DNA of 64,000 nt from a virus. Each line of letters starts with the position of its first letter. Within the stretch, counting starts at the first letter, position 1. The stretch is from positions 48,367 to 112,366 of the IMG/VR virus record IMGVR_UViG_3300043411_001114, one strand, 5' to 3'. Below the pieces are notes generated by a model. The model was not told where the DNA came from, searched no databases, and saw nothing but the letters and a program-made list of their open reading frames with translations. This document shows, one piece after another, positions 3,206-57,649 of the stretch. A program made the position numbers and the translations under genes.

Positions 3206-6200
3206 ATGGCCGGTAAAACCGACTACTTTTATGACTTTCACTACCCACTGCCGTTTGTTGAGTTGATCCTCAAACTGCTCGGCAAAAAGCAGGACGGCAC
3301 CACGCAACTCACCGACACGGCGAACCGGGAATGGTTCTCCCAGCCCCGGCTGTCGTCCAGCGGCCAGACCGACTGCATCACGGTGAACTTCCGACTCCCG
3401 CTCTCGGTCAGCGAGATCAGCACCGAAATACTGCGGATGCCGTGCCTGGTGGAACTGTGGTACCAGGATCGCTCCAACAACTGGCGTCCCATCCTGGACA
3501 CCCAGCGGACCCCGCTGAAAGTCAATGTCTCCCGGTCGGACACCGCGTCGTGGTACAAGTATTTCTCGAAGTGCTACCCGATTGTGGCGAAGAAGGTGCA
3601 GTTCCGCATCACCCGCACCAACGATCCTGCAGTGGACGGGATCCCGTACCCGGTGGGGATGCGCAATACCCTGATCCGGCGCAACGTCTATGACCGCGAC
3701 TCGGGCGGCTCGTTCGAGGACGAGGTCGACATCATGGGCAACGTGGTGTCGAAGTACATCAAGGACTGGGATGCCCAGCGGGCCGCCGACGACAACTACC
3801 TGACCTTCTGGCGGTCGGCACCACAGCCCGACCCTGCAGCGGTGGTGAGCCTCTATCTCGACGTCCGCGACGAGGAGGGTCGACCGCAGGTCATCGACAA
3901 AATCTATCTCGATCCTGTCTACAGCGGTCAGCACCTGAACCTGTACTACAGCATCGACGGCCTGGTGGGCACACGATTCCTGTCACCCATCACGCTCGGG
4001 CCTGCGACGGGAACCGAGGAAGACCCGACGGTGTCGGGCATGGAGTGGCGTTCGGGGCAGGGTCTCCGGGATTCGTTGGACGTCGAGGACACCGACTCAT
4101 CGTTCTACACCTGGCCGCTGTCGATCGGCCCCCTGCCCACCCAGGACGGCTGGATCGGGGTCGAGTGGCGACCCAATTTCGAGTCGGCCAACGTCGAACT
4201 GAACCACAACCCGATTCTGTTCCAGGCCGAACAGGTTTCCGGCAAATTCAAGCCGACCCTGCTTTACGACCCCGAGAACCGGACTTTCGAACTGGTGCTC
4301 GGAACCGGGCACGTCTACACCAGTTCGGCGATCAGTCAGGAGTTCGTCGTCGGCGACTCGCTGCGCATCGTCGCCGGATGGCGGTATGTGTCGGGTGGTG
4401 ACGATGTGGTGGTCATCAAAGTCACCGACCAGCGGGGCCGAGTCCTGGCGAGCCTGAGCGAGGACACCGAACTGCCGGAGATCATCGGATTCGATGGCAC
4501 CTGTCGGGTGGCGGACTTCCGAGGAATCCTGCCCAACCTCATTGTGAAGCTGGAGAACCCGGAACTCTCGTCGGAGAACTTTCTCAAAAACCCTCTCTAC
4601 TACGTCGATCCCGACCCGGTGATTGTCGATGAGTCTGGTTCGCGCCCGGTGACGTCACTCAACAACGCCATCTACGCCGCGCCGTTCGTCGCCCGCGAGC
4701 ACGGCTCTGGCGGCTCGGACTCCAGTCATTTCGAGGACAAGGAATGGACCCCGATCTGGCGCGACTACACCGCCGTGCGGGGGATGCTGCACCTGCCCAA
4801 GCCGGTCTCGATGAGCTACCTCAAACTGGAGTTCACCAACCTGACAGAACAGCCCTACCCGATCTACGAGGCCGGAATCGAGACCTCCTACAAGGTCTTC
4901 CCGATCCAGGTCACCCAGCAGTCGTCAATCGGGCCGAAGCTCTACACCGGCGGCGGCGGCTTCCTCGGCATGGGGACATTCATCTCGATGAACGGCACCC
5001 GGTCGGTGAACTGGCTCGACCCGGTGTCGGTCATGCAGGCGGTGGGCAGCGTTCTCGGCCCCCAGACGCCACCGGTGATCATCAGCACCGCCACCCCCTA
5101 CATCGTTGACCGGCTGCCCAACAATGGGACGCAGGCCGTCGAGGAACAGACCCGGATCGAGGCCGCCTCGGCCTACGTCTACCCGAGGGAGGCCCTCAAC
5201 CCCTACATTCTGGCCCAGGACCAGTACAACACCACCATCAAAGCCGAGGGTCTGCAGGCCATCCAGCCCTACGTCGACGTCCCGTGGGAGGCTATCGAGG
5301 CCGCCAATCCCGGTTCTGTCACCAAGGTTCGGTCGACCGGCACCGTGCCGATCCGGGGCACCGACTGGTGGATTTATCCCGGCCAGCAGATCAAGGTCCC
5401 GGCGTCGGTGATGACCAAACTGACGTCGACCGAGACTGTCACCGAGCGCAAACTGACACTGGAGAACCGAACCCGGTTCAACACCACGTCGGTACACCGC
5501 TACGAGACCAGGACGGTCAAGAGGGATGCGGCGATCGCGTACTTCGCCGGGGTCCGGGAGGTTCAGCCCTACACCTCGACCTACATCACCGGCGAGGATC
5601 GGCCTTACTTCGAGTTCCCGAGCTACGACGCGACCCAGTGGACTTACGTCGAGGAGAACGCCCAGAAGTCCCCTCAAGGCCCCATCTCTGCCCGCTACCC
5701 GAACATTCCCCTGATCATCAGCAAACACTTCGAGACCCAGTCCGAGTTCGTCAAGGTCTCTATGGAATTTCAGGATTCGGGTTTGCTGAGGTCGAACTCG
5801 ATGTGGGCCGACATCGACCAGGCGGTGGCCGGGATCGAGGACACCAGACTCTCGCCCTACGTCAACACCGTCCCGGCCAACATCCCGGGCGGCAACTGGG
5901 CCGACGACCGTGCGGTCTGGCTCGACCCGGGAACGGTCTGGGGCGCGGTGCGTGGCCTGGTCTCGATCAATGTCGACAGCGACCGGCGTTACCAGGGCCG
6001 TCGGGTGCTGCACTTCACCCGGGCCGCCGGGTCTGGTGAGGCCGGTATCAGCCTCGATCAGTGGACTAATTTCGTCCCTGGTGCGCAGTTCCGGATGGGG
6101 GCCGTCTTCTATCGCCCGAACAATACCGACAACGAACTGGTGATGACCCTGACCCGCTCGGACGGGGTGGAGATTCACCGTGAGGTGCTCGACTACGCCC

Positions 6201-6997: not shown

Positions 6998-7046
6998 TGC
7001 TATAATTACGGGACACCACCACCACCCCCGTCAGGAGATCATCATC
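6996..7046 (+). promoter_or_regulatory. Repeat promoter (TGC-TATAAT) with ACC-repeat leader and RBS
   Basis: atgcTATAATtacgggacaccaccaccaccccgtcAGGAG; the same motif recurs more than 10 times in the window. Confidence 0.7.
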
Positions 7047-13744: not shown

Positions 13745-13815
13745 TTGACTTTACTGTTTTTATAGCTCATACTAATAGAGCAAGCAGCCACCACCACCAA
13801 CAAGGGAGTCACCAC
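13745..13815 (+). promoter_or_regulatory. SigA-like promoter (TTGACT-17-CATACT) with ACC leader and RBS
   Basis: TTGACT at 13745, CATACT at 13768, leader gccaccaccaccaacaaGGGAG. Confidence 0.6.
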
Positions 13816-16297: not shown

Positions 16298-16705
16298 GTG
16301 ACAGTAGTGACGGCCTATCAGTGCAAGGCGAGGGGCATGGCGACCCGCATCGAAATAGGTCTCCCGCGAGACCAAATAATGCAAAAATACCTGGTCAGGC
16401 GCATCTTCAGGGAGGTCGAGTTTCGGGTCACCGAGTCGACCGGTGACGTCGTCGTGGGGTACATCACCGGCTTCGACGACCGGTGCCTGCAGATGTCGAC
16501 CTCCCCGGCGCACGTCGGGGATGAACCCCGGTCGGTTCTGATATTCTGGCCCGTCTCGCGCATCGAGGAGACCGGCCGCCGGGTCGATGACCTCGACCAC
16601 GAGCACCGGTCGAAGATTCGCAGCTACTCGCACGCCCTCAAACTCCAGTGCGAGAGTTTCCTGACCAACAGGGGCCAGGGCAACCGCCCCCGGGATGGGG
16701 TCTGA
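16298..16705 (+). CDS. Hypothetical protein with Sm/Hfq-like motif (alternative start 16337)
   Basis: TGDVVVGYITGFDDRCLQM resembles the Sm1 motif; VLIFWPVSRIE resembles Sm2. Confidence 0.55.
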   Translation: MTVVTAYQCKARGMATRIEIGLPRDQIMQKYLVRRIFREVEFRVTESTGDVVVGYITGFDDRCLQMSTSPAHVGDEPRSVLIFWPVSRIEETGRRVDDLDHEHRSKIRSYSHALKLQCESFLTNRGQGNRPRDGV

Positions 16706-16784
16706 CACGACCCCGAGGCCCGCTGAGTCCCGTGCTACAATAAGTGTCTAATTAGGGATTCGAGCAAAGGGATGGGGTGGTGGT

Positions 16785-17168
16785 GTGTTCTCCGACATGG
16801 ACCCTCTGGAAGAGGATATGGGCGTCCGGGTAGAAAACATGACCGTCGACCAGATCATCGCCTACGTCAAGGCCTACCACGCCGCCTTCGGGTTCACTGT
16901 CCGCATCGACGGCCAGCCCGAGCGGGCCATCTTCCGGTCCCTGCAGCGGGTGTACGGGCAGGCTGACGCGGGGCGGATTGTGAAGTGGGTGTTCTACAAA
17001 TACCGGGGCCACTACAACGACGAGTTCATCGGCCCGATGGCCTTCTCCAAGGGTCGCAAATGGTTCACCGACAAGATGCACTTGGAGATGCAGCAAGCCA
17101 TGAAAGAGCAAAAGCCCAGGTCGTACGCCCCCAAGGGGCTGGGTGTGCGGAGCCTGATCGACCTGTGA
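16785..17168 (+). CDS. Hypothetical protein, first gene of the replication operon
   Basis: ORF downstream of TGC-TACAAT (16736); overlaps the DnaC-like start. Confidence 0.7.
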   Translation: MFSDMDPLEEDMGVRVENMTVDQIIAYVKAYHAAFGFTVRIDGQPERAIFRSLQRVYGQADAGRIVKWVFYKYRGHYNDEFIGPMAFSKGRKWFTDKMHLEMQQAMKEQKPRSYAPKGLGVRSLIDL

Positions 17169-39194: not shown

Positions 39195-39264
39195 TGCTTG
39201 GGCTATAGATGGGTTACAATTAAGGGGTACGCACCGCCACCACCACCCCGAAGGAGTAGCCGAC
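39191..39264 (+). promoter_or_regulatory. Repeat promoter plus ACC leader
   Basis: TTGATG...CTATAGatgggtTACAATtaagggg...caccgccaccaccaccccgAAGGAG. Confidence 0.7.
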
Positions 39265-39897: not shown

Positions 39898-39951
39898 CTG
39901 TAGCCATGCTATAATTAAAGGACACCACCACCCACCACCAAGGAGCCAGAC
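39898..39951 (+). promoter_or_regulatory. Repeat promoter/operator plus ACC leader
   Basis: cTGTAGCcatGCTATAATtaaaggacaccaccacccaccaccAAGGAG. Confidence 0.75.
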
Positions 39952-40644: not shown

Positions 40645-40661
40645 TCGCCTCCCTCTCGACC

Positions 40662-40704
40662 GCTCAGCCCCCGGGAACCCCCGTCCCCCGGGGGTTGAGC
40701 TTTA
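40662..40704 (+). terminator. Intrinsic terminator
   Basis: gctcagcccccggg / cccgggggttgagc stem followed by ttta. Confidence 0.65.
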
Positions 40705-41055: not shown

Positions 41056-41088
41056 GTTTTCGGGTTCTGGTGTGTGTATAATTGAGGC

Positions 41089-41259
41089 ATGCTCACCACC
41101 GCCGCCATCCAGAACATCCCGGAGCGTGTCTCCTGCCCCCAGTGCGATCACAGCGCACGCATCGTCGAACTCCGCGCCTTTGGGGTCGACCGCCACCGTT
41201 CCACCCTGTCCTGCGGTCACGTCGTGACCAGGGACTCGATCGGGCTAGACGTCAACTAG
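41089..41259 (+). CDS. Small leaderless zinc-ribbon protein (56 aa)
   Basis: TGTG-TATAAT (41077-41082) lies 6 nt before the ATG; CPQC...LSCGH. Confidence 0.6.
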   Translation: MLTTAAIQNIPERVSCPQCDHSARIVELRAFGVDRHRSTLSCGHVVTRDSIGLDVN

Positions 41260-41270
41260 CCCCACAAGGC

Positions 41271-41332
41271 TGCGGGTTGCCATTGCCGGGTTTGGTGGTG
41301 GTGCTAAAAACCTGGCGACAGCGCCACCCGCA
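41271..41332 (+). ncRNA. Candidate 3'-UTR hairpin RNA with GGUGGUGGUG apex
   Basis: Long stem tgcgggt/acccgca plus ttgccgggttt/aaacctggcga; the G-U pairs favour the + strand. Confidence 0.4.
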
Positions 41333-41333
41333 C

Positions 41334-41373
41334 AAGTCCCCCCGGGAGAGCAATCCCCCGGGGGGACTTTCTT
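41334..41373 (+). terminator. Intrinsic terminator
   Basis: 13-bp stem aagtccccccggg/cccggggggactt followed by tctt. Confidence 0.75.
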
Positions 41374-41391
41374 GTTACCATAGTTTTCAAC

Positions 41392-41520
41392 ATGAGCCGT
41401 TACGCCGATAAGAGAACCAGGCCCGGGTGTCGTGTCGAGGGGTGCCAGCATACCGCCGTCCAGTTGAGAATCCGAATGGGCATCCTGGGTTGGTACTGCG
41501 CAGAGCATCTAAATAAGTGA
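41392..41520 (+). CDS. Small zinc-finger-like protein (42 aa)
   Basis: C-x4-C...YCAEH. Confidence 0.45.
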   Translation: MSRYADKRTRPGCRVEGCQHTAVQLRIRMGILGWYCAEHLNK

Positions 41521-41661
41521 GAGGAATGTTGTTGTGACCAGCCCTGAAGTCGTGGGTGGCGACGATGATCCTGTCGCCGACACCGCAGACCTGGACACCC
41601 GCAACAACGCGAACACCCCGGGAATGTGGGAGGACAATTTCTCGTGAAGGGACCAGGTCTC

Positions 41662-41901
41662 GTGACACCACCACCACCCCAGCGCCCCCTCCCTCCCCCC
41701 GAGCCGTTCGAGAAGAAGATTGTTACCGGATACCTCACCGACCGCATCTCGATCGGCAAGAAGGACGGTTCGGTGGCTCTGGTGCTGTCCAGCCCGGTCT
41801 CTGACCTCAACCTGATCTTCGAGACCAGCCCGGCCGGTGCCCGCCAGGTGGCGGCCTCGCTGCTCAACCAGGCCGACGCCCTCGACCCCCCGACGACGTG
41901 A
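41662..41901 (+). CDS. Hypothetical protein
   Basis: GTG start; stop overlaps the glycosyltransferase start. Confidence 0.55.
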   Translation: MTPPPPQRPLPPPEPFEKKIVTGYLTDRISIGKKDGSVALVLSSPVSDLNLIFETSPAGARQVAASLLNQADALDPPTT

Positions 41902-43220
41902 CCATCGACCTCAGCATTCTGGTTTGCAGCACCCACACCAGGTGGGACAATTTCGGCCAGGAGATTCAGCGCCAGCTGTGGGGTCAGTACAACGACCTTC
42001 CCGAGGAGTACCAGGCCCGGGTCGAGATTCTGATGCTCACCGACAACAAGTCGATGATGCTCGGCCATAAGCGCAACATTCTGGTCGGGATGGCTCAGGG
42101 ACGCTACGTCCAATTCGTCGACGACGACGACCGCATCGAGCCGGACATGCTGCGCACCATCCTCGACGCCACCGACAAGAACACCGACGCCATCACTTTC
42201 CTGGCGGCCGTCTCGCTCAATGGTGAGCCGCCCAAGACGTGCCGTTACTCGCTGCGGTACCTGAAGGACAAGAACACCGCCACCGGCTACGAGCGGGTGC
42301 CCAACCATATCTGCGCCATCAAGCGGGAATTGGCGACCAGGGTATCGTTCCCGCATCTTCCCTTCGGGGAGGACTCCGGCTATGCCAAACTGCTGCGCCC
42401 CCTCCTGAAGACTGAGGCCCATATCGACCGGGTGTTGTATCGGTATGATTACAATTCCGAGACCACCGAGACCCAGCAGCATCTGCGCAATCGTCCGGCA
42501 CCGGCCCGGGAGGGTGTTGCTCCGGTGGCCGACATTGTCATCCTCTCCAATGCCACCACCAAAGACCTGAGGGCCTTGACCCAGGCCGCCGTCGACAGTT
42601 GCCGCTCTGGGGCCAACGGCCTCCCGATCGGGATCGCCGTCCTCGAACAGAAGCCGGGGATCGTCTACCGCCGCTGCGCCACCATCCACATGGATCAGCC
42701 GTTCCACTACAACCGCTTCGCCAACTTCGGTGCCGGTCGGGGGTCGGCATCCTGGATCGTCATCGCCAACAACGACCTGGTCTTCTACGACGGCTGGCTC
42801 CACCAACTGATCGCCGCCGATCACCCGCTGGTGTCTCCGAAGTGTCCCCGTGACCCGCGTCAGGCCGAGTTCACCACCAACACCACCGGCGACCGCACCG
42901 GCAGGCACCTGTCGGGCTGGTGTTTTATGATTTCCCGCGACCTGTGGGAGAAGATCGGCGGCTTTGATGAGTCGGTGAGTTTCTGGTGCTCCGACGACGT
43001 GGTCATTGAGCAGGCCCGGTCTGAGGACGTGCTGCCGATGCTCGTCCCGGCGTCGGTGGTTGAGCATGTCCAGTCGGCGACCCTCAAGACCCAGCGCAAC
43101 CGCGACGACCTCACCTGGAAGCAGGTCGACATCTTCATCAACAAGTACGGCAGCCACCGTCTGCGGGATCACCCCGAATATCTTCGGTGGAAGAAGAGTC
43201 AGGCTATAATTAGTCAGTGA
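41898..43220 (+). CDS. Glycosyltransferase with two GT-A (GT2-like) domains
   Basis: LSILVC, LGHKRN, YVQFVDDDD and GED in the first domain; FHYNRFAN.G, IANND, GWCF, IGGFDE and CSDD in the second. Confidence 0.85.
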   Translation: MTIDLSILVCSTHTRWDNFGQEIQRQLWGQYNDLPEEYQARVEILMLTDNKSMMLGHKRNILVGMAQGRYVQFVDDDDRIEPDMLRTILDATDKNTDAITFLAAVSLNGEPPKTCRYSLRYLKDKNTATGYERVPNHICAIKRELATRVSFPHLPFGEDSGYAKLLRPLLKTEAHIDRVLYRYDYNSETTETQQHLRNRPAPAREGVAPVADIVILSNATTKDLRALTQAAVDSCRSGANGLPIGIAVLEQKPGIVYRRCATIHMDQPFHYNRFANFGAGRGSASWIVIANNDLVFYDGWLHQLIAADHPLVSPKCPRDPRQAEFTTNTTGDRTGRHLSGWCFMISRDLWEKIGGFDESVSFWCSDDVVIEQARSEDVLPMLVPASVVEHVQSATLKTQRNRDDLTWKQVDIFINKYGSHRLRDHPEYLRWKKSQAIISQ

Positions 43221-51444: not shown

Positions 51445-51514
51445 ACTATAGGCATCTGTGCTACAATTACAGGACACCACCCACCACCCACCACCACCTC
51501 AAGGAGCCACCACC
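51445..51514 (+). promoter_or_regulatory. Repeat promoter plus ACC leader
   Basis: gtgcTACAATtacaggacaccacccaccacccaccaccacctcAAGGAGccaccaccATG. Confidence 0.75.
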
Positions 51515-51856
51515 ATGACGAACACCACCATTGCCGCCCGCGAGGAAATCCGGGCCGTGGCCAAGTCCCACGGCTGGGAGTCCAGCAAGTCCGGCCTGTG
51601 GCACGACACCTTCCTGCGCCCCGCCGAGTTGGGGGCCGACAGCGTCCTGGCTGGATTTTTCGTCGCCTCCGGGCACTCCCCGCTGGATAAGGTATTTGTC
51701 GGCTACGACTACCTGGGCCGGGTCATCGACGCCAGCTGGGCCACCCCGGGCCAGCAATCGGCCCTCCTCGGCTACCACGTCGGCTCCACCGACATCACCG
51801 GCACCGGCAAGCGCGCCCAGGTGCTCCAACTGCTCACCGAAGGGCTGCCCTCATGA
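51515..51856 (+). CDS. Hypothetical protein
   Basis: Follows the repeat leader and RBS. Confidence 0.7.
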   Translation: MTNTTIAAREEIRAVAKSHGWESSKSGLWHDTFLRPAELGADSVLAGFFVASGHSPLDKVFVGYDYLGRVIDASWATPGQQSALLGYHVGSTDITGTGKRAQVLQLLTEGLPS

Positions 51857-52547: not shown

Positions 52548-52586
52548 GTGTATTCAGGTCACCTAAAGCCATGCTACAATTAAGGC

Positions 52587-53544: not shown

Positions 53545-53604
53545 CCTACAGTCATGCTACAATTAATGGACACCGCCACCCACCACCCCAAAGGAGTCAC
53601 CACC
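53545..53604 (+). promoter_or_regulatory. Repeat promoter plus ACC leader
   Basis: cCTACAGtcatgcTACAATtaatggacaccgccacccaccaccccaAAGGAG. Confidence 0.75.
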
Positions 53605-54009
53605 ATGACAAACACCACCACCACCACCAAAGACATCGCCATCCAGAGCATCATCGACTCCATCGAGCGCGACATGACCCGCAGCCGCACCAAGATCGCC
53701 CGCTTCCTGGAAGGGGTGGCCGAGGCCACCGTAGGCCGGGCCTCGACGGCCGCCGAGAACCTGATCCGGGCTGAGTACGCCCTCGCTGAGGCGCGTTATG
53801 TCCGGGACTGCATCGAGGACTTCGGAAAAGACGGTGACGGGATGGCCGAGACCCTCCTGCGTGCGATGCACTACATCGCCCTGCGGCAGGGTGATGCGGC
53901 CATGAACATGGGCAACGAGTCCAAGCCCGCCATCGAGGGCAGGATCGCCGCGCTGCGTCAGGCCGCCCTGGCGGTAAGCCAGGCATTCGAGGACAGTAAG
54001 AAGAAGTGA
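53605..54009 (+). CDS. Hypothetical protein
   Basis: Follows the repeat leader and RBS. Confidence 0.7.
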   Translation: MTNTTTTTKDIAIQSIIDSIERDMTRSRTKIARFLEGVAEATVGRASTAAENLIRAEYALAEARYVRDCIEDFGKDGDGMAETLLRAMHYIALRQGDAAMNMGNESKPAIEGRIAALRQAALAVSQAFEDSKKK

Positions 54010-54026
54010 AATCGGCCAGATTCACT

Positions 54027-54080
54027 CTGTAGCCATGCTACAATTAAAGGACACCACCACCTAGCCCCCAGGAGGCCAGC
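54027..54080 (+). promoter_or_regulatory. Repeat promoter with perfect palindrome TGTAGC-cat-GCTACA plus ACC leader
   Basis: Palindrome 54028-54042 overlaps TACAAT 54039-54044; AGGAGG RBS. Confidence 0.8.
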
Positions 54081-54383
54081 ATGACCACCACCACCACCCT
54101 CGTCACCGACCTGGCCTGGAACTCCCGCGCCTGCAAGAATGGCAATACTCGTCGCCGGGGTGCCCTGGAAGGCACCCTGCTCGGGGTGCCGGTCAATGGC
54201 CGCACCATCGGCAAGGGGGTGGCCTTCCAGTTCGGTCTGATCACTGGCGAGGTTCGCACCGCCTGGTGGGACGGCACGTTGTACTACGGCTCGCCGTGCC
54301 TGTTCGACATCGACACTCACGAGCCGCTGTCGTTCAGCCCCGAGGCGTTCGTGTGGTTCGACCTGCTGTCCAACGTCAGCTAG
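54081..54383 (+). CDS. Hypothetical protein
   Basis: Follows the repeat leader and RBS. Confidence 0.7.
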   Translation: MTTTTTLVTDLAWNSRACKNGNTRRRGALEGTLLGVPVNGRTIGKGVAFQFGLITGEVRTAWWDGTLYYGSPCLFDIDTHEPLSFSPEAFVWFDLLSNVS

Positions 54384-54405: not shown

Positions 54406-54464
54406 CTGTAGCTATGCTACAATTAAAGAACACCACCACCCACCACCGAAAGGACACCACCACC
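54406..54464 (+). promoter_or_regulatory. Repeat promoter with perfect palindrome TGTAGC-tat-GCTACA plus ACC leader
   Basis: Palindrome 54407-54421 overlaps TACAAT 54418-54423. Confidence 0.8.
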
Positions 54465-54878
54465 ATGAGCGTCACCTTCGATGCCGGAACCTCTTCCTGG
54501 AACGAGACCTTCCAGGCCAACGTGCTCTCCTCGACCTCGCCCGAGGAGATCGGGGTCAACATGAGCAACACCAACGCCCACCGGGTCGCCCAGACCCTCG
54601 GGATCGACCTCGACCCCGACTGGTGCGGTCACATGGCGGCCGAGGACTTCCTGGGCCGTGTTCTGGTGGCGCTGGCCATCAGCCCCGCCGATGAGGGGAT
54701 GCCCTCGCACACCCTGCAACCCGGCGACGACGCCGGTGTTTTCGGCACCGTCCGCGAGGGCGGGCCGACCATCGTCGCGGGCGCTCGCCGCCCCGGCTAC
54801 CTGCAGGAGCGGCTTACCGAACTGCACGAGCTGGCGCTGTGGGCGGTCGCCAACGACGCGGTGGTGATGTGGGGGTAA
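54465..54878 (+). CDS. Hypothetical protein
   Basis: Follows the repeat leader. Confidence 0.7.
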   Translation: MSVTFDAGTSSWNETFQANVLSSTSPEEIGVNMSNTNAHRVAQTLGIDLDPDWCGHMAAEDFLGRVLVALAISPADEGMPSHTLQPGDDAGVFGTVREGGPTIVAGARRPGYLQERLTELHELALWAVANDAVVMWG

Positions 54879-54893
54879 AACCCCGCTCTGCCG

Positions 54894-54959
54894 CTATAGC
54901 CGTGCTACAATTGGGCCTCGACTAGCCTTCCCACCACCCACTACCAAGGAGCCACCACC
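54894..54959 (+). promoter_or_regulatory. Repeat promoter plus ACC leader
   Basis: cTATAGCcgtGCTACAAT...cccaccacccactaccAAGGAG. Confidence 0.7.
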
Positions 54960-55148
54960 ATGAGTTACGTCTACGGGCCTCGCGTTTACTACGGCCCAAT
55001 CACCGACCCGGCCGACGAGCCGGAGGTCTACTGCGAGTGCGGTAGGTCGGTCTGGGGCTGCCCGGGCAACTGCTACCAGATGAGCCTTCTGCAGTTGGTC
55101 GACCCGGTCACCGGGGAGCGCCCGCTCCCGATGAGTGACCACCAGTGA
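54960..55148 (+). CDS. Small Cys-rich hypothetical protein
   Basis: AAGGAG RBS; CEC...C...C. Confidence 0.6.
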   Translation: MSYVYGPRVYYGPITDPADEPEVYCECGRSVWGCPGNCYQMSLLQLVDPVTGERPLPMSDHQ

Positions 55149-57430: not shown

Positions 57431-57490
57431 CTATAGCTAGGCTACAATTAAGGGACACCGCCCACCCACCACCGAAAGGCCACCACCACC
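57431..57490 (+). promoter_or_regulatory. Repeat promoter plus ACC leader
   Basis: cTATAGCtagGCTACAATtaagggacaccgcccacccaccaccgAAAGG. Confidence 0.75.
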
Positions 57491-57649
57491 ATGACCAACC
57501 GGATGCTCGGAACCTGCGGCCAGCCGCCCTGCGGCAAGTGTTGCGGTTGGAAGACCAAGACCGACAACCAGGCCAACAAGCGCCGCTTCCGGCGCATCGA
57601 GCGCCGCGAGGCCGCCCGCATCGTTTTCGAGGAGGTCTGGGGGAAATGA
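57491..57649 (+). CDS. Small Cys/Arg-rich protein (52 aa)
   Basis: Directly follows the repeat leader; ATGA overlap with the next gene. Confidence 0.55.
   Translation: MTNRMLGTCGQPPCGKCCGWKTKTDNQANKRRFRRIERREAARIVFEEVWGK

Follow-up and report, generated by a model that had tools for sequence, protein, structure and literature searches.

A conserved 3'-UTR hairpin with a loop complementary to ACC-rich leaders: a candidate riboregulator in an actinophage genome

Genomic context of the hairpin

The DNA analysed here (the window) is a stretch of 64,000 nucleotides corresponding to bases 48367-112366 of a 112-kb IMG/VR virus record, whose completeness is estimated at 74%. The window has a G+C content of 62% and nearly all of its genes are located on the + strand. 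Protein matches point to a large actinophage: the glycosyltransferase encoded at 41898-43220 is ~60% identical to those of Gordonia phages and of Mycobacterium phage Omega, and a 230-aa protein encoded nearby has its matches among mycobacteriophage proteins.

The locus begins with a small gene (41089-41259, +) encoding a 56-aa zinc-ribbon-like protein with a CxxC...CxH arrangement. A TATAAT box (41077-41082, +) lies 6 nt 5' of the ATG at 41089, which makes a leaderless start plausible; transcription is predicted to begin near 41089, and the predicted 5' start of the mRNA reads AUGCUCACCACCGCC. The protein gave weak Pfam Zn_ribbon matches below the cut-off (E 0.004-0.008), and no homologues were found in phage collections, even by tblastn. 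The gene is followed by a bulged stem-loop of 62 nt (41271-41332, +) and, after a gap of one base, by an intrinsic terminator (41334-41376, +). An earlier note on this DNA had described a stem-loop of this length between a leaderless zinc-ribbon gene and a strong terminator, and both its sequence and its coordinates were recovered here. The downstream unit (41380-41520, +) consists of a -10-like TAGTTT (41380-41385) and a leaderless gene for a 42-aa Cys/His protein (41392-41520). All genes neighbouring the hairpin locus are on the + strand.

The 42-aa gene belongs to phrog_2526 (E 3e-10). Homologues with 37% identity are present in ~200 Bixzunavirus (Cluster C) mycobacteriophages, such as Mycobacterium phage Pleione (1501-1632), and the gene precedes glycosyltransferase genes both here and in Bixzunavirus. 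It is also conserved in the metagenomic relative described below and, judged by its homologues, is a conserved small gene. No hairpin was found upstream of the 42-aa homologues in Bixzunavirus phages. Gordonia phages and Bixzunavirus have the downstream genes in the vicinity of their glycosyltransferase genes but not the hairpin/zinc-ribbon module. At the DNA level, neither the locus nor the hairpin showed similarity to any of 50,697 phage records (megablast and blastn), and a promoter-leader query against the same records returned nothing useful. Scans of IMG/VR with the flanking proteins, as well as with two hairpin patterns and one promoter-leader pattern, and a scan of GTDB genomes likewise yielded no useful relative.

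Structure and conservation of the hairpin

The hairpin is composed of two stems separated by a 2x2 internal loop. The outer stem (41271-41280 paired with 41321-41323 and 41326-41332) has 10 bp and a CC bulge, and the inner stem (41283-41293 paired with 41308-41318) has 11 bp. The inner stem closes an open loop of 14 nt, GGUGGUGGUGCUAA (41294-41307, +), which the centroid fold leaves unpaired; the minimum free energy (MFE) fold adds a weak inner helix of 4 bp that the centroid lacks. The earlier note had placed the apex at 41291-41305. An open loop does lie there, but UUU at 41291-41293 pairs with AAA at 41308-41310, so that the true loop is 41294-41307. Its first ten bases (41294-41303), GGUGGUGGUG, form the candidate seed, and opening them would cost 3.1 kcal/mol.

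Folding energies favour the + strand. The hairpin folds with -32.8 kcal/mol (z -2.9) on the + strand and with -25.3 kcal/mol (z -1.6) on the - strand; the fold of the - strand is weaker because three G-U pairs (U278-G, U284-G and G288-U) turn into A-C mismatches. The strand assignment that the earlier note had drawn from these G-U pairs is therefore borne out. The adjacent terminator has the features expected of a Rho-independent terminator, namely a 13-bp GC-rich stem (41334-41369) followed by a U-rich tail, UUUCUUGUU.

Several other classes of element were considered for this segment. The hairpin is single-copy, with many short antisense matches confined to its loop, which rules out a repeated or mobile element. 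Neither ARAGORN nor Rfam called a tRNA or tRNA-like structure at the locus. A leader-peptide transcription attenuator was rejected because no antiterminator pairing that competes with the terminator exists in any fold; the 56-aa ORF is a conserved protein gene and not a regulatory peptide. No Rfam family matched the hairpin at gathering thresholds, and the best local scores remained below them (His_leader RF00514, 23.8 bits vs 49; isrK RF01394, 10.9 bits vs 50). By inspection of the sequence, no -10-like motif was found directly upstream of the hairpin. A two-tier G-quadruplex (GGG-UUU-GG-U-GG-U-GG) was also considered; it would have to compete with a stem of -33 kcal/mol.

Evidence for conservation comes from one relative, L005, a metagenome contig of 1601 nt that was found by a metagenome scan and is fully syntenic (upstream gene, promoter, zinc-ribbon gene, hairpin, terminator and 42-aa gene). 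The TATAAT box at 41077-41082 has the same letters in this contig. Elsewhere, relatives of the upstream 110-aa gene with 84-85% identity are found in the protein collection, and a neighbouring protein is encoded on 29 further contigs (up to 146 kb) in addition to relatives of 18 kb and 44 kb. Overall divergence between the window and L005 is 9.9% (68 transitions and 36 transversions), with 7.6-13.8% in the flanking genes and 5.1% in the hairpin plus terminator. All six substitutions in the hairpin plus terminator are transitions at paired positions, and every one of them keeps its pair by swapping a Watson-Crick pair for G-U or the reverse. Five are located in the hairpin and one, a change from G-C to G-U, in the terminator. 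Simulations using the local transition share put the probability of observing no broken pair at 0.034 when the hairpin is taken by itself and at 0.014 when the terminator is included. The two lineages have their G-U pairs at different positions, a pattern that is sensible only for a + strand RNA, and the hairpin of L005 also folds better on the + strand (-33.6 vs -28.9 kcal/mol).

The loop is identical in L005, although the absence of changes in 14 nt at 5-10% divergence is suggestive and not significant alone. The pattern that the earlier note had named as speaking against its proposal, a conserved stem with a variable loop, was not seen: the loop is unchanged and the stem varies by pair-keeping changes. 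A secondary structure conserved on one strand, as is typical of base-pairing small RNAs (sRNAs), is thus found here on the basis of a single relative. By its folding and the five pair-keeping substitutions, the segment 41271-41332 is a real conserved RNA structure of the 3' UTR, on the + strand and under purifying selection.

Other parts of the locus show different patterns of change. The zinc-ribbon ORF is a real gene, since 4 of the 5 changes past codon 10 are synonymous. Right after an invariant 5' block of 15 nt, 8 substitutions are concentrated in 13 nt (41104-41116, +; codons 6-10), where the window encodes AAIQNI and L005 encodes AQVMNV. A second strong terminator hairpin (40655-40700, +), located 3' of the 230-aa gene, has 3 changes in 78 nt in L005. 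The gene at 41659-41901 differs between the lineages in the number of ACC copies at its start: GTG-ACACCACCACCACC (TPPPPQ; 41659-41680) in the window and ATG-ACACCACC (TPPQ; 1461-1476) in L005. This suggests that ACC runs expand and contract by slippage.

ACC-rich leaders and their complementarity to the loop

On its + strand the window has 42 occurrences of the motif CACCACCA, compared with 11 on the minus strand, and ~25 of these 42 runs (>=8 nt) are located in 5' leaders or in the first dozen codons. An extended -10 box, TGcTAcAAT, is common to eleven sites in the window and to one located farther upstream in the contig, and cTGTAGC often precedes it. Since ACACCACCACC begins 6 nt past this box, where the mRNA is predicted to start, the extreme 5' end of the message would be formed by the ACC run. 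The promoter family can be written as cTGTAGC-N3-(T)GcTAcAAT-taaagg, with ACACCACCACC following where transcription is predicted to start. Members lie at window positions 7001, 39910, 51462, 52575, 53558, 54039, 54418, 54906 and 57443 and at contig base 5046. The promoter at 52575 drives a leaderless gene whose ATG is at the predicted start, and the -10/spacer layout of both the ACC-leader promoters and this leaderless variant recurs at the TATAAT box of the zinc-ribbon gene. Several of the mRNAs have a second run between the Shine-Dalgarno sequence (SD) and the AUG (AGGAGCCACCACCAUG) and a third one as Thr codons. The shared extended -10 promoter, together with ACACCACCACC where the mRNA is predicted to begin, shows that the set of ACC leaders is real. 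The partly palindromic TGTAGC..GCTACA resembles a protein operator.

Complementarity between the loop and these leaders had been claimed in the earlier note and was confirmed in detail. The segment 41292-41303 is the exact reverse complement of 13789-13800, and the matches near 7014, 39238, 39923, 54052 and 54431 are all present. Across the genome, antisense matches of the loop reach 10-13 nt, the longest (13 nt) being to 53619-53631; the motif (ACC)n/(GGU)n is, however, a low-complexity trinucleotide repeat.

Candidate targets, all on the + strand, fall into several arrangements. An ACC run at a predicted mRNA 5' end is present at 7013-7026 (duplex -22.1 and net -18.9 kcal/mol), and a perfect complement of 12 nt is located just 5' of an RBS at 13788-13800 (duplex -23.9 kcal/mol). 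ACC leaders precede a DUF6011 gene (39237-39247) and the gene for the 230-aa protein (39922-39940). Runs at the 5' end are combined with an ACC-rich SD-AUG spacer at 51474-51515 (CCACCACCA) and 54430-54465 (CACCACCACCA), and a leader is combined with such a spacer at 54931-54960 (CCACCACCA) and 57455-57491 (CCACCACCACCA). The site at 53570-53631 includes the leader, the SD-AUG spacer and (ACC)5 in codons 4-8, where the 13-nt match lies, and that at 54051-54098 includes a 5'-end run and (ACC)5 in codons 2-6. In five targets the site covers the SD-AUG spacer. Within the + strand gene at 54465-54878, ARAGORN called a tRNA-Thr(GGU) on the opposite strand (54530-54607, -), which is probably a false positive; the Rfam tRNA model gave no match there even at E <= 10.

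For the 12 promoter-defined 5' regions, the predicted duplexes with the loop range from -20.6 to -25.4 kcal/mol (mean -22.5), all 12 being at or below -20 kcal/mol. The target sites are nearly unstructured, and after both opening costs the net energies are -13 to -20 kcal/mol. When 500 shuffled loops were paired with the same 12 leaders, the mean was -12.9 +/- 1.6 kcal/mol and none of them reached -22.5 kcal/mol. The observed loop paired with random + strand windows of 90 nt gave a mean of -15.5 +/- 2.8 kcal/mol, with 7.7% at or below -20 kcal/mol. As far as these predictions go, the loop would offer what a base-pairing sRNA needs, an accessible and conserved seed complementary to several initiation regions. 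In the loop/leader covariation comparison, L005 has the same loop and no promoter-proximal leader.

The composition of both partners should be considered here. Among Thr codons ACC is a favoured one, and a scarcity of G in leaders can be explained in an ordinary way, as it keeps translation-initiation regions unstructured. The + strand of the 112-kb contig has 12 runs of (GGT)>=3, 10 of them in clear coding sequence; outside coding and leader DNA, the hairpin loop is the best anti-ACC sequence in the 112 kb. Another of the 12 runs, also reading GGUGGUGGUG, lies at 16776-16785. A promoter of the same extended -10 class, gTGcTACAAT, is present right after an Hfq-like gene (16733-16800, +), and the unstructured leader behind it holds GGUGGUGGUG 11 nt before a candidate AUG at 16797. 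This copy mirrors the ACC leaders and is the strongest anti-ACC sequence of the contig (-27.4 kcal/mol vs the leader consensus); it may be an SD-like element.

Possible functions of the hairpin RNA

The best single reading, which we hold tentatively and at somewhat less than even chances, is that the hairpin is an anti-ACC riboregulator acting in trans and possibly also in cis; a structural role comes close behind. The proposal of the earlier note is thereby supported in part. Under the riboregulator reading, the ~105-nt 3' portion of the transcript (41271-41376), bounded by a stable stem on the 5' side and by the terminator on the 3' side, would survive as a 3'-UTR-derived small RNA, or the whole mRNA of ~290 nt would be a dual-function RNA. 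The open 14-nt loop, with GGUGGUGGUG as seed, would pair with those translation-initiation regions of the phage that are rich in ACC, poor in G and unstructured. The sites of contact could be the very 5' terminus of the mRNA (ACACCACCACC), the spacer that separates SD and AUG (CCACCACCAUG) and the first Thr codons. For a dozen or more small promoter-proximal genes, such pairing would lower ribosome access or alter decay that depends on the 5' end, and the same loop could pair in cis with nt 5-19 of the zinc-ribbon mRNA. The architecture, a seed hairpin and a terminator with a U-tail, is the layout of base-pairing sRNAs.

An Hfq-like phage protein might assist in this pairing, which is speculative. 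The window encodes a member of Pfam PF23874, Phage_Hfq (16337-16705, +; 133 bits, E 4.6e-39), which is also phrog_2868. A search of the literature found no solved structure or functional study of this family. To our knowledge, the likely hosts (relatives of Mycobacterium or Gordonia) are without canonical Hfq. With regard to features of Hfq binding, the U-tail of the hairpin RNA is interrupted (UUUCUUGUU) and the ACC repeats are not ARN motifs.

The strongest alternative, which we consider quite possible and rank second, is a purely structural element of the 3' end that protects against exonucleases, serves as a processing site for RNase III or another enzyme, or aids termination, the match to ACC being an incidental result of low complexity. 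The stems are the part that is demonstrably evolving under constraint, a position next to a terminator is typical of stabilising hairpins, and an interrupted stem of 21 bp has the size of an RNase III substrate. The hairpin also has no independent promoter, (GGT)n runs are not rare on the + strand, and the only resemblance in Rfam is to an attenuator-like hairpin plus terminator (His_leader, E 0.08). On the other hand, the terminator is strong without help from the hairpin, and an open loop of 14 nt costs stability and is unexpected in a pure stabiliser, yet it is kept letter for letter. That this loop matches 12 of 12 leaders far better than any of 500 shuffles, and is the best anti-ACC sequence among non-coding, non-leader DNA, also speaks against an incidental match.

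Autoregulation in cis only is unlikely in our view, though it has specific points in its favour. Here the loop would pair with nt 5-19 of its own leaderless mRNA, in the manner of icaR, and would either keep 70S ribosomes from loading on the 5'-terminal AUG or protect the 5' end against RNase J/E; the other leader matches would be by-products of a shared ACC bias. The possible partner is the ACC-rich 5' block CUCACCACCGCCGCC (41093-41107, +), and its duplex with the loop is predicted at -21.0 kcal/mol in the window and -19.6 kcal/mol in L005, a pairing as good as that with the leaders and one that the earlier note had not considered. In L005, nt 1-15 of the mRNA are the same and the burst of 8 substitutions follows only afterwards, and pairing in cis gains from a high local concentration. 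In the MFE fold of the whole transcript from the window (41089-41376), 41293-41303 are paired with nt 9-19 of the mRNA, with an unpaired probability of ~0.01. However, the MFE fold of L005 retains the local hairpin and not the long-range pairing, the pairing register in cis differs between the lineages, and in the window the long-range MFE fold comes at the expense of exactly those stems for whose formation the pair-keeping substitutions argue. Global folds of GC-rich RNAs of 290 nt are also unreliable. Given that those substitutions speak for formation of the local hairpin, a cis mechanism is compatible with them only as a kissing contact of the loop with the 5' end. A 3'-UTR motif complementary to the initiation region of its own mRNA, as in icaR, is predicted here and is conserved in the relative.

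It is still less probable that the RNA acts by binding a protein, the ribosome or RNA polymerase. The partner might be the zinc-ribbon protein or the Hfq-like protein, the ribosome might be bound through the SD-like loop (GGUGGUG vs GGAGGUG), or the polymerase might use the element as a put-like antiterminator, with read-through into the 42-aa and glycosyltransferase genes. A large conserved loop would suit such a role, as would a position immediately 5' of the terminator between two same-strand units. With a candidate AUG 11 nt further on, the other GGUGGUGGUG run (16776) could be an SD. However, there is no match to an Rfam family, the folds show no antiterminator pairing with the 5' arm of the terminator, no start codon is found at SD distance past the loop, and the zinc-ribbon protein is without any link to RNA binding.

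Finally, a feature of the minus strand is essentially excluded: the minus strand of the loop region does read AGCACCACCACCAAA, and both a terminator-like match (41328-41314) and an 87-aa ORF (41245-41508) are present on it, but its ACC run has no flanking -10 or SD, which also disposes of the minus-strand leader copy that the earlier note had named as a way to be wrong, the G-U pairs and their changes become A-C mismatches with a fold weaker by 5-7 kcal/mol, the T-run of the terminator-like site is broken in L005, indels of 1 nt and 2 nt in L005 frameshift the 87-aa ORF, and the neighbouring genes are all on the + strand.

If the hairpin is an anti-ACC riboregulator, several known systems provide comparisons. 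The c4 antisense RNA of phages P1/P7 and the CI RNA of satellite phage P4 are small hairpin RNAs cut from a longer sense transcript, whose exposed loops pair with short repeated sites in the phage's own mRNAs and block translation or transcription. They act on one operon through one or two sites in immunity control, are located in operon leaders, are processed by RNase P and are found in enterobacterial hosts. The candidate hairpin is likewise a phage hairpin with an exposed loop that matches repeated sites in its own mRNAs; in contrast, it has at least 12 dispersed candidate leaders, lies in a 3' UTR beside a terminator and belongs to a phage of an actinobacterial host. No relation between the hairpin and the c4/CI RNAs was detected by sequence or Rfam.

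The enterobacterial 3'-UTR-derived sRNAs CpxQ, DapZ and SroC consist of a seed stem-loop followed by the intrinsic terminator of the parental gene. These type II sRNAs have no promoter of their own, are released by processing and have multiple targets; they need both RNase E and canonical Hfq, and usually carry the seed in a single-stranded 5' end. The candidate hairpin shares with them the seed stem-loop, the parental terminator and the absence of its own promoter. Unlike these RNAs, it would have its seed in a hairpin loop, as in Gram-positive sRNAs. In the icaR mRNA of Staphylococcus aureus, an anti-SD motif of the 3' UTR, UCCCCUG, pairs with the SD of the same mRNA. The hairpin has a comparable 3'-UTR motif complementary to the translation-initiation region of its own mRNA, but here the mRNA is leaderless and the partner would be the ACC-rich block just past the 5'-terminal AUG.

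Closer to the likely hosts, the C-rich loops of the mycobacterial sRNA B11 pair with G-rich RBS regions. The polarity is opposite here, with a G/U-rich loop and C/A-rich leaders. This sRNA (6C/B11; PMC10470900) is Hfq-independent and uses hairpin loops as seeds on many mRNAs. Mycobacteriophages L5, D29 and StarStuff produce abundant small non-coding RNAs whose function is unknown, from Pleft at the right genome end or from the 63-64 intergenic region in Cluster A (PMC5712189). Such RNAs are therefore expressed in this phage group. No target motif has been described for them, unlike the candidate loop with its ACC leaders, and the hairpin showed no sequence similarity to them. More generally, we know of no small RNA from mycobacteriophage RNA-seq with a known target or mechanism.

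A more far-reaching version of the riboregulator reading, which we regard as improbable as a whole, is a private RNA regulon in which one anti-ACC 3'-UTR RNA would face the ACACCACCACC mRNAs of about a dozen early-type promoters. This RNA, possibly chaperoned by Phage_Hfq in a host that lacks Hfq, would switch translation or stability as infection proceeds and would also feed back on its own leaderless mRNA.

In actinobacteriophages, post-transcriptional control has hardly been explored, and the locus described here provides two concrete partners, a loop seed of 10 nt and a leader motif that recurs on a defined set of genes. If the pairing is not real, the element would be an ordinary stabilising hairpin beside a terminator. 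If it is, the unusual ACC leaders would have a function, and this would be a first example of a phage that coordinates an entire class of its messages by one antisense loop, in a host lineage without Hfq.
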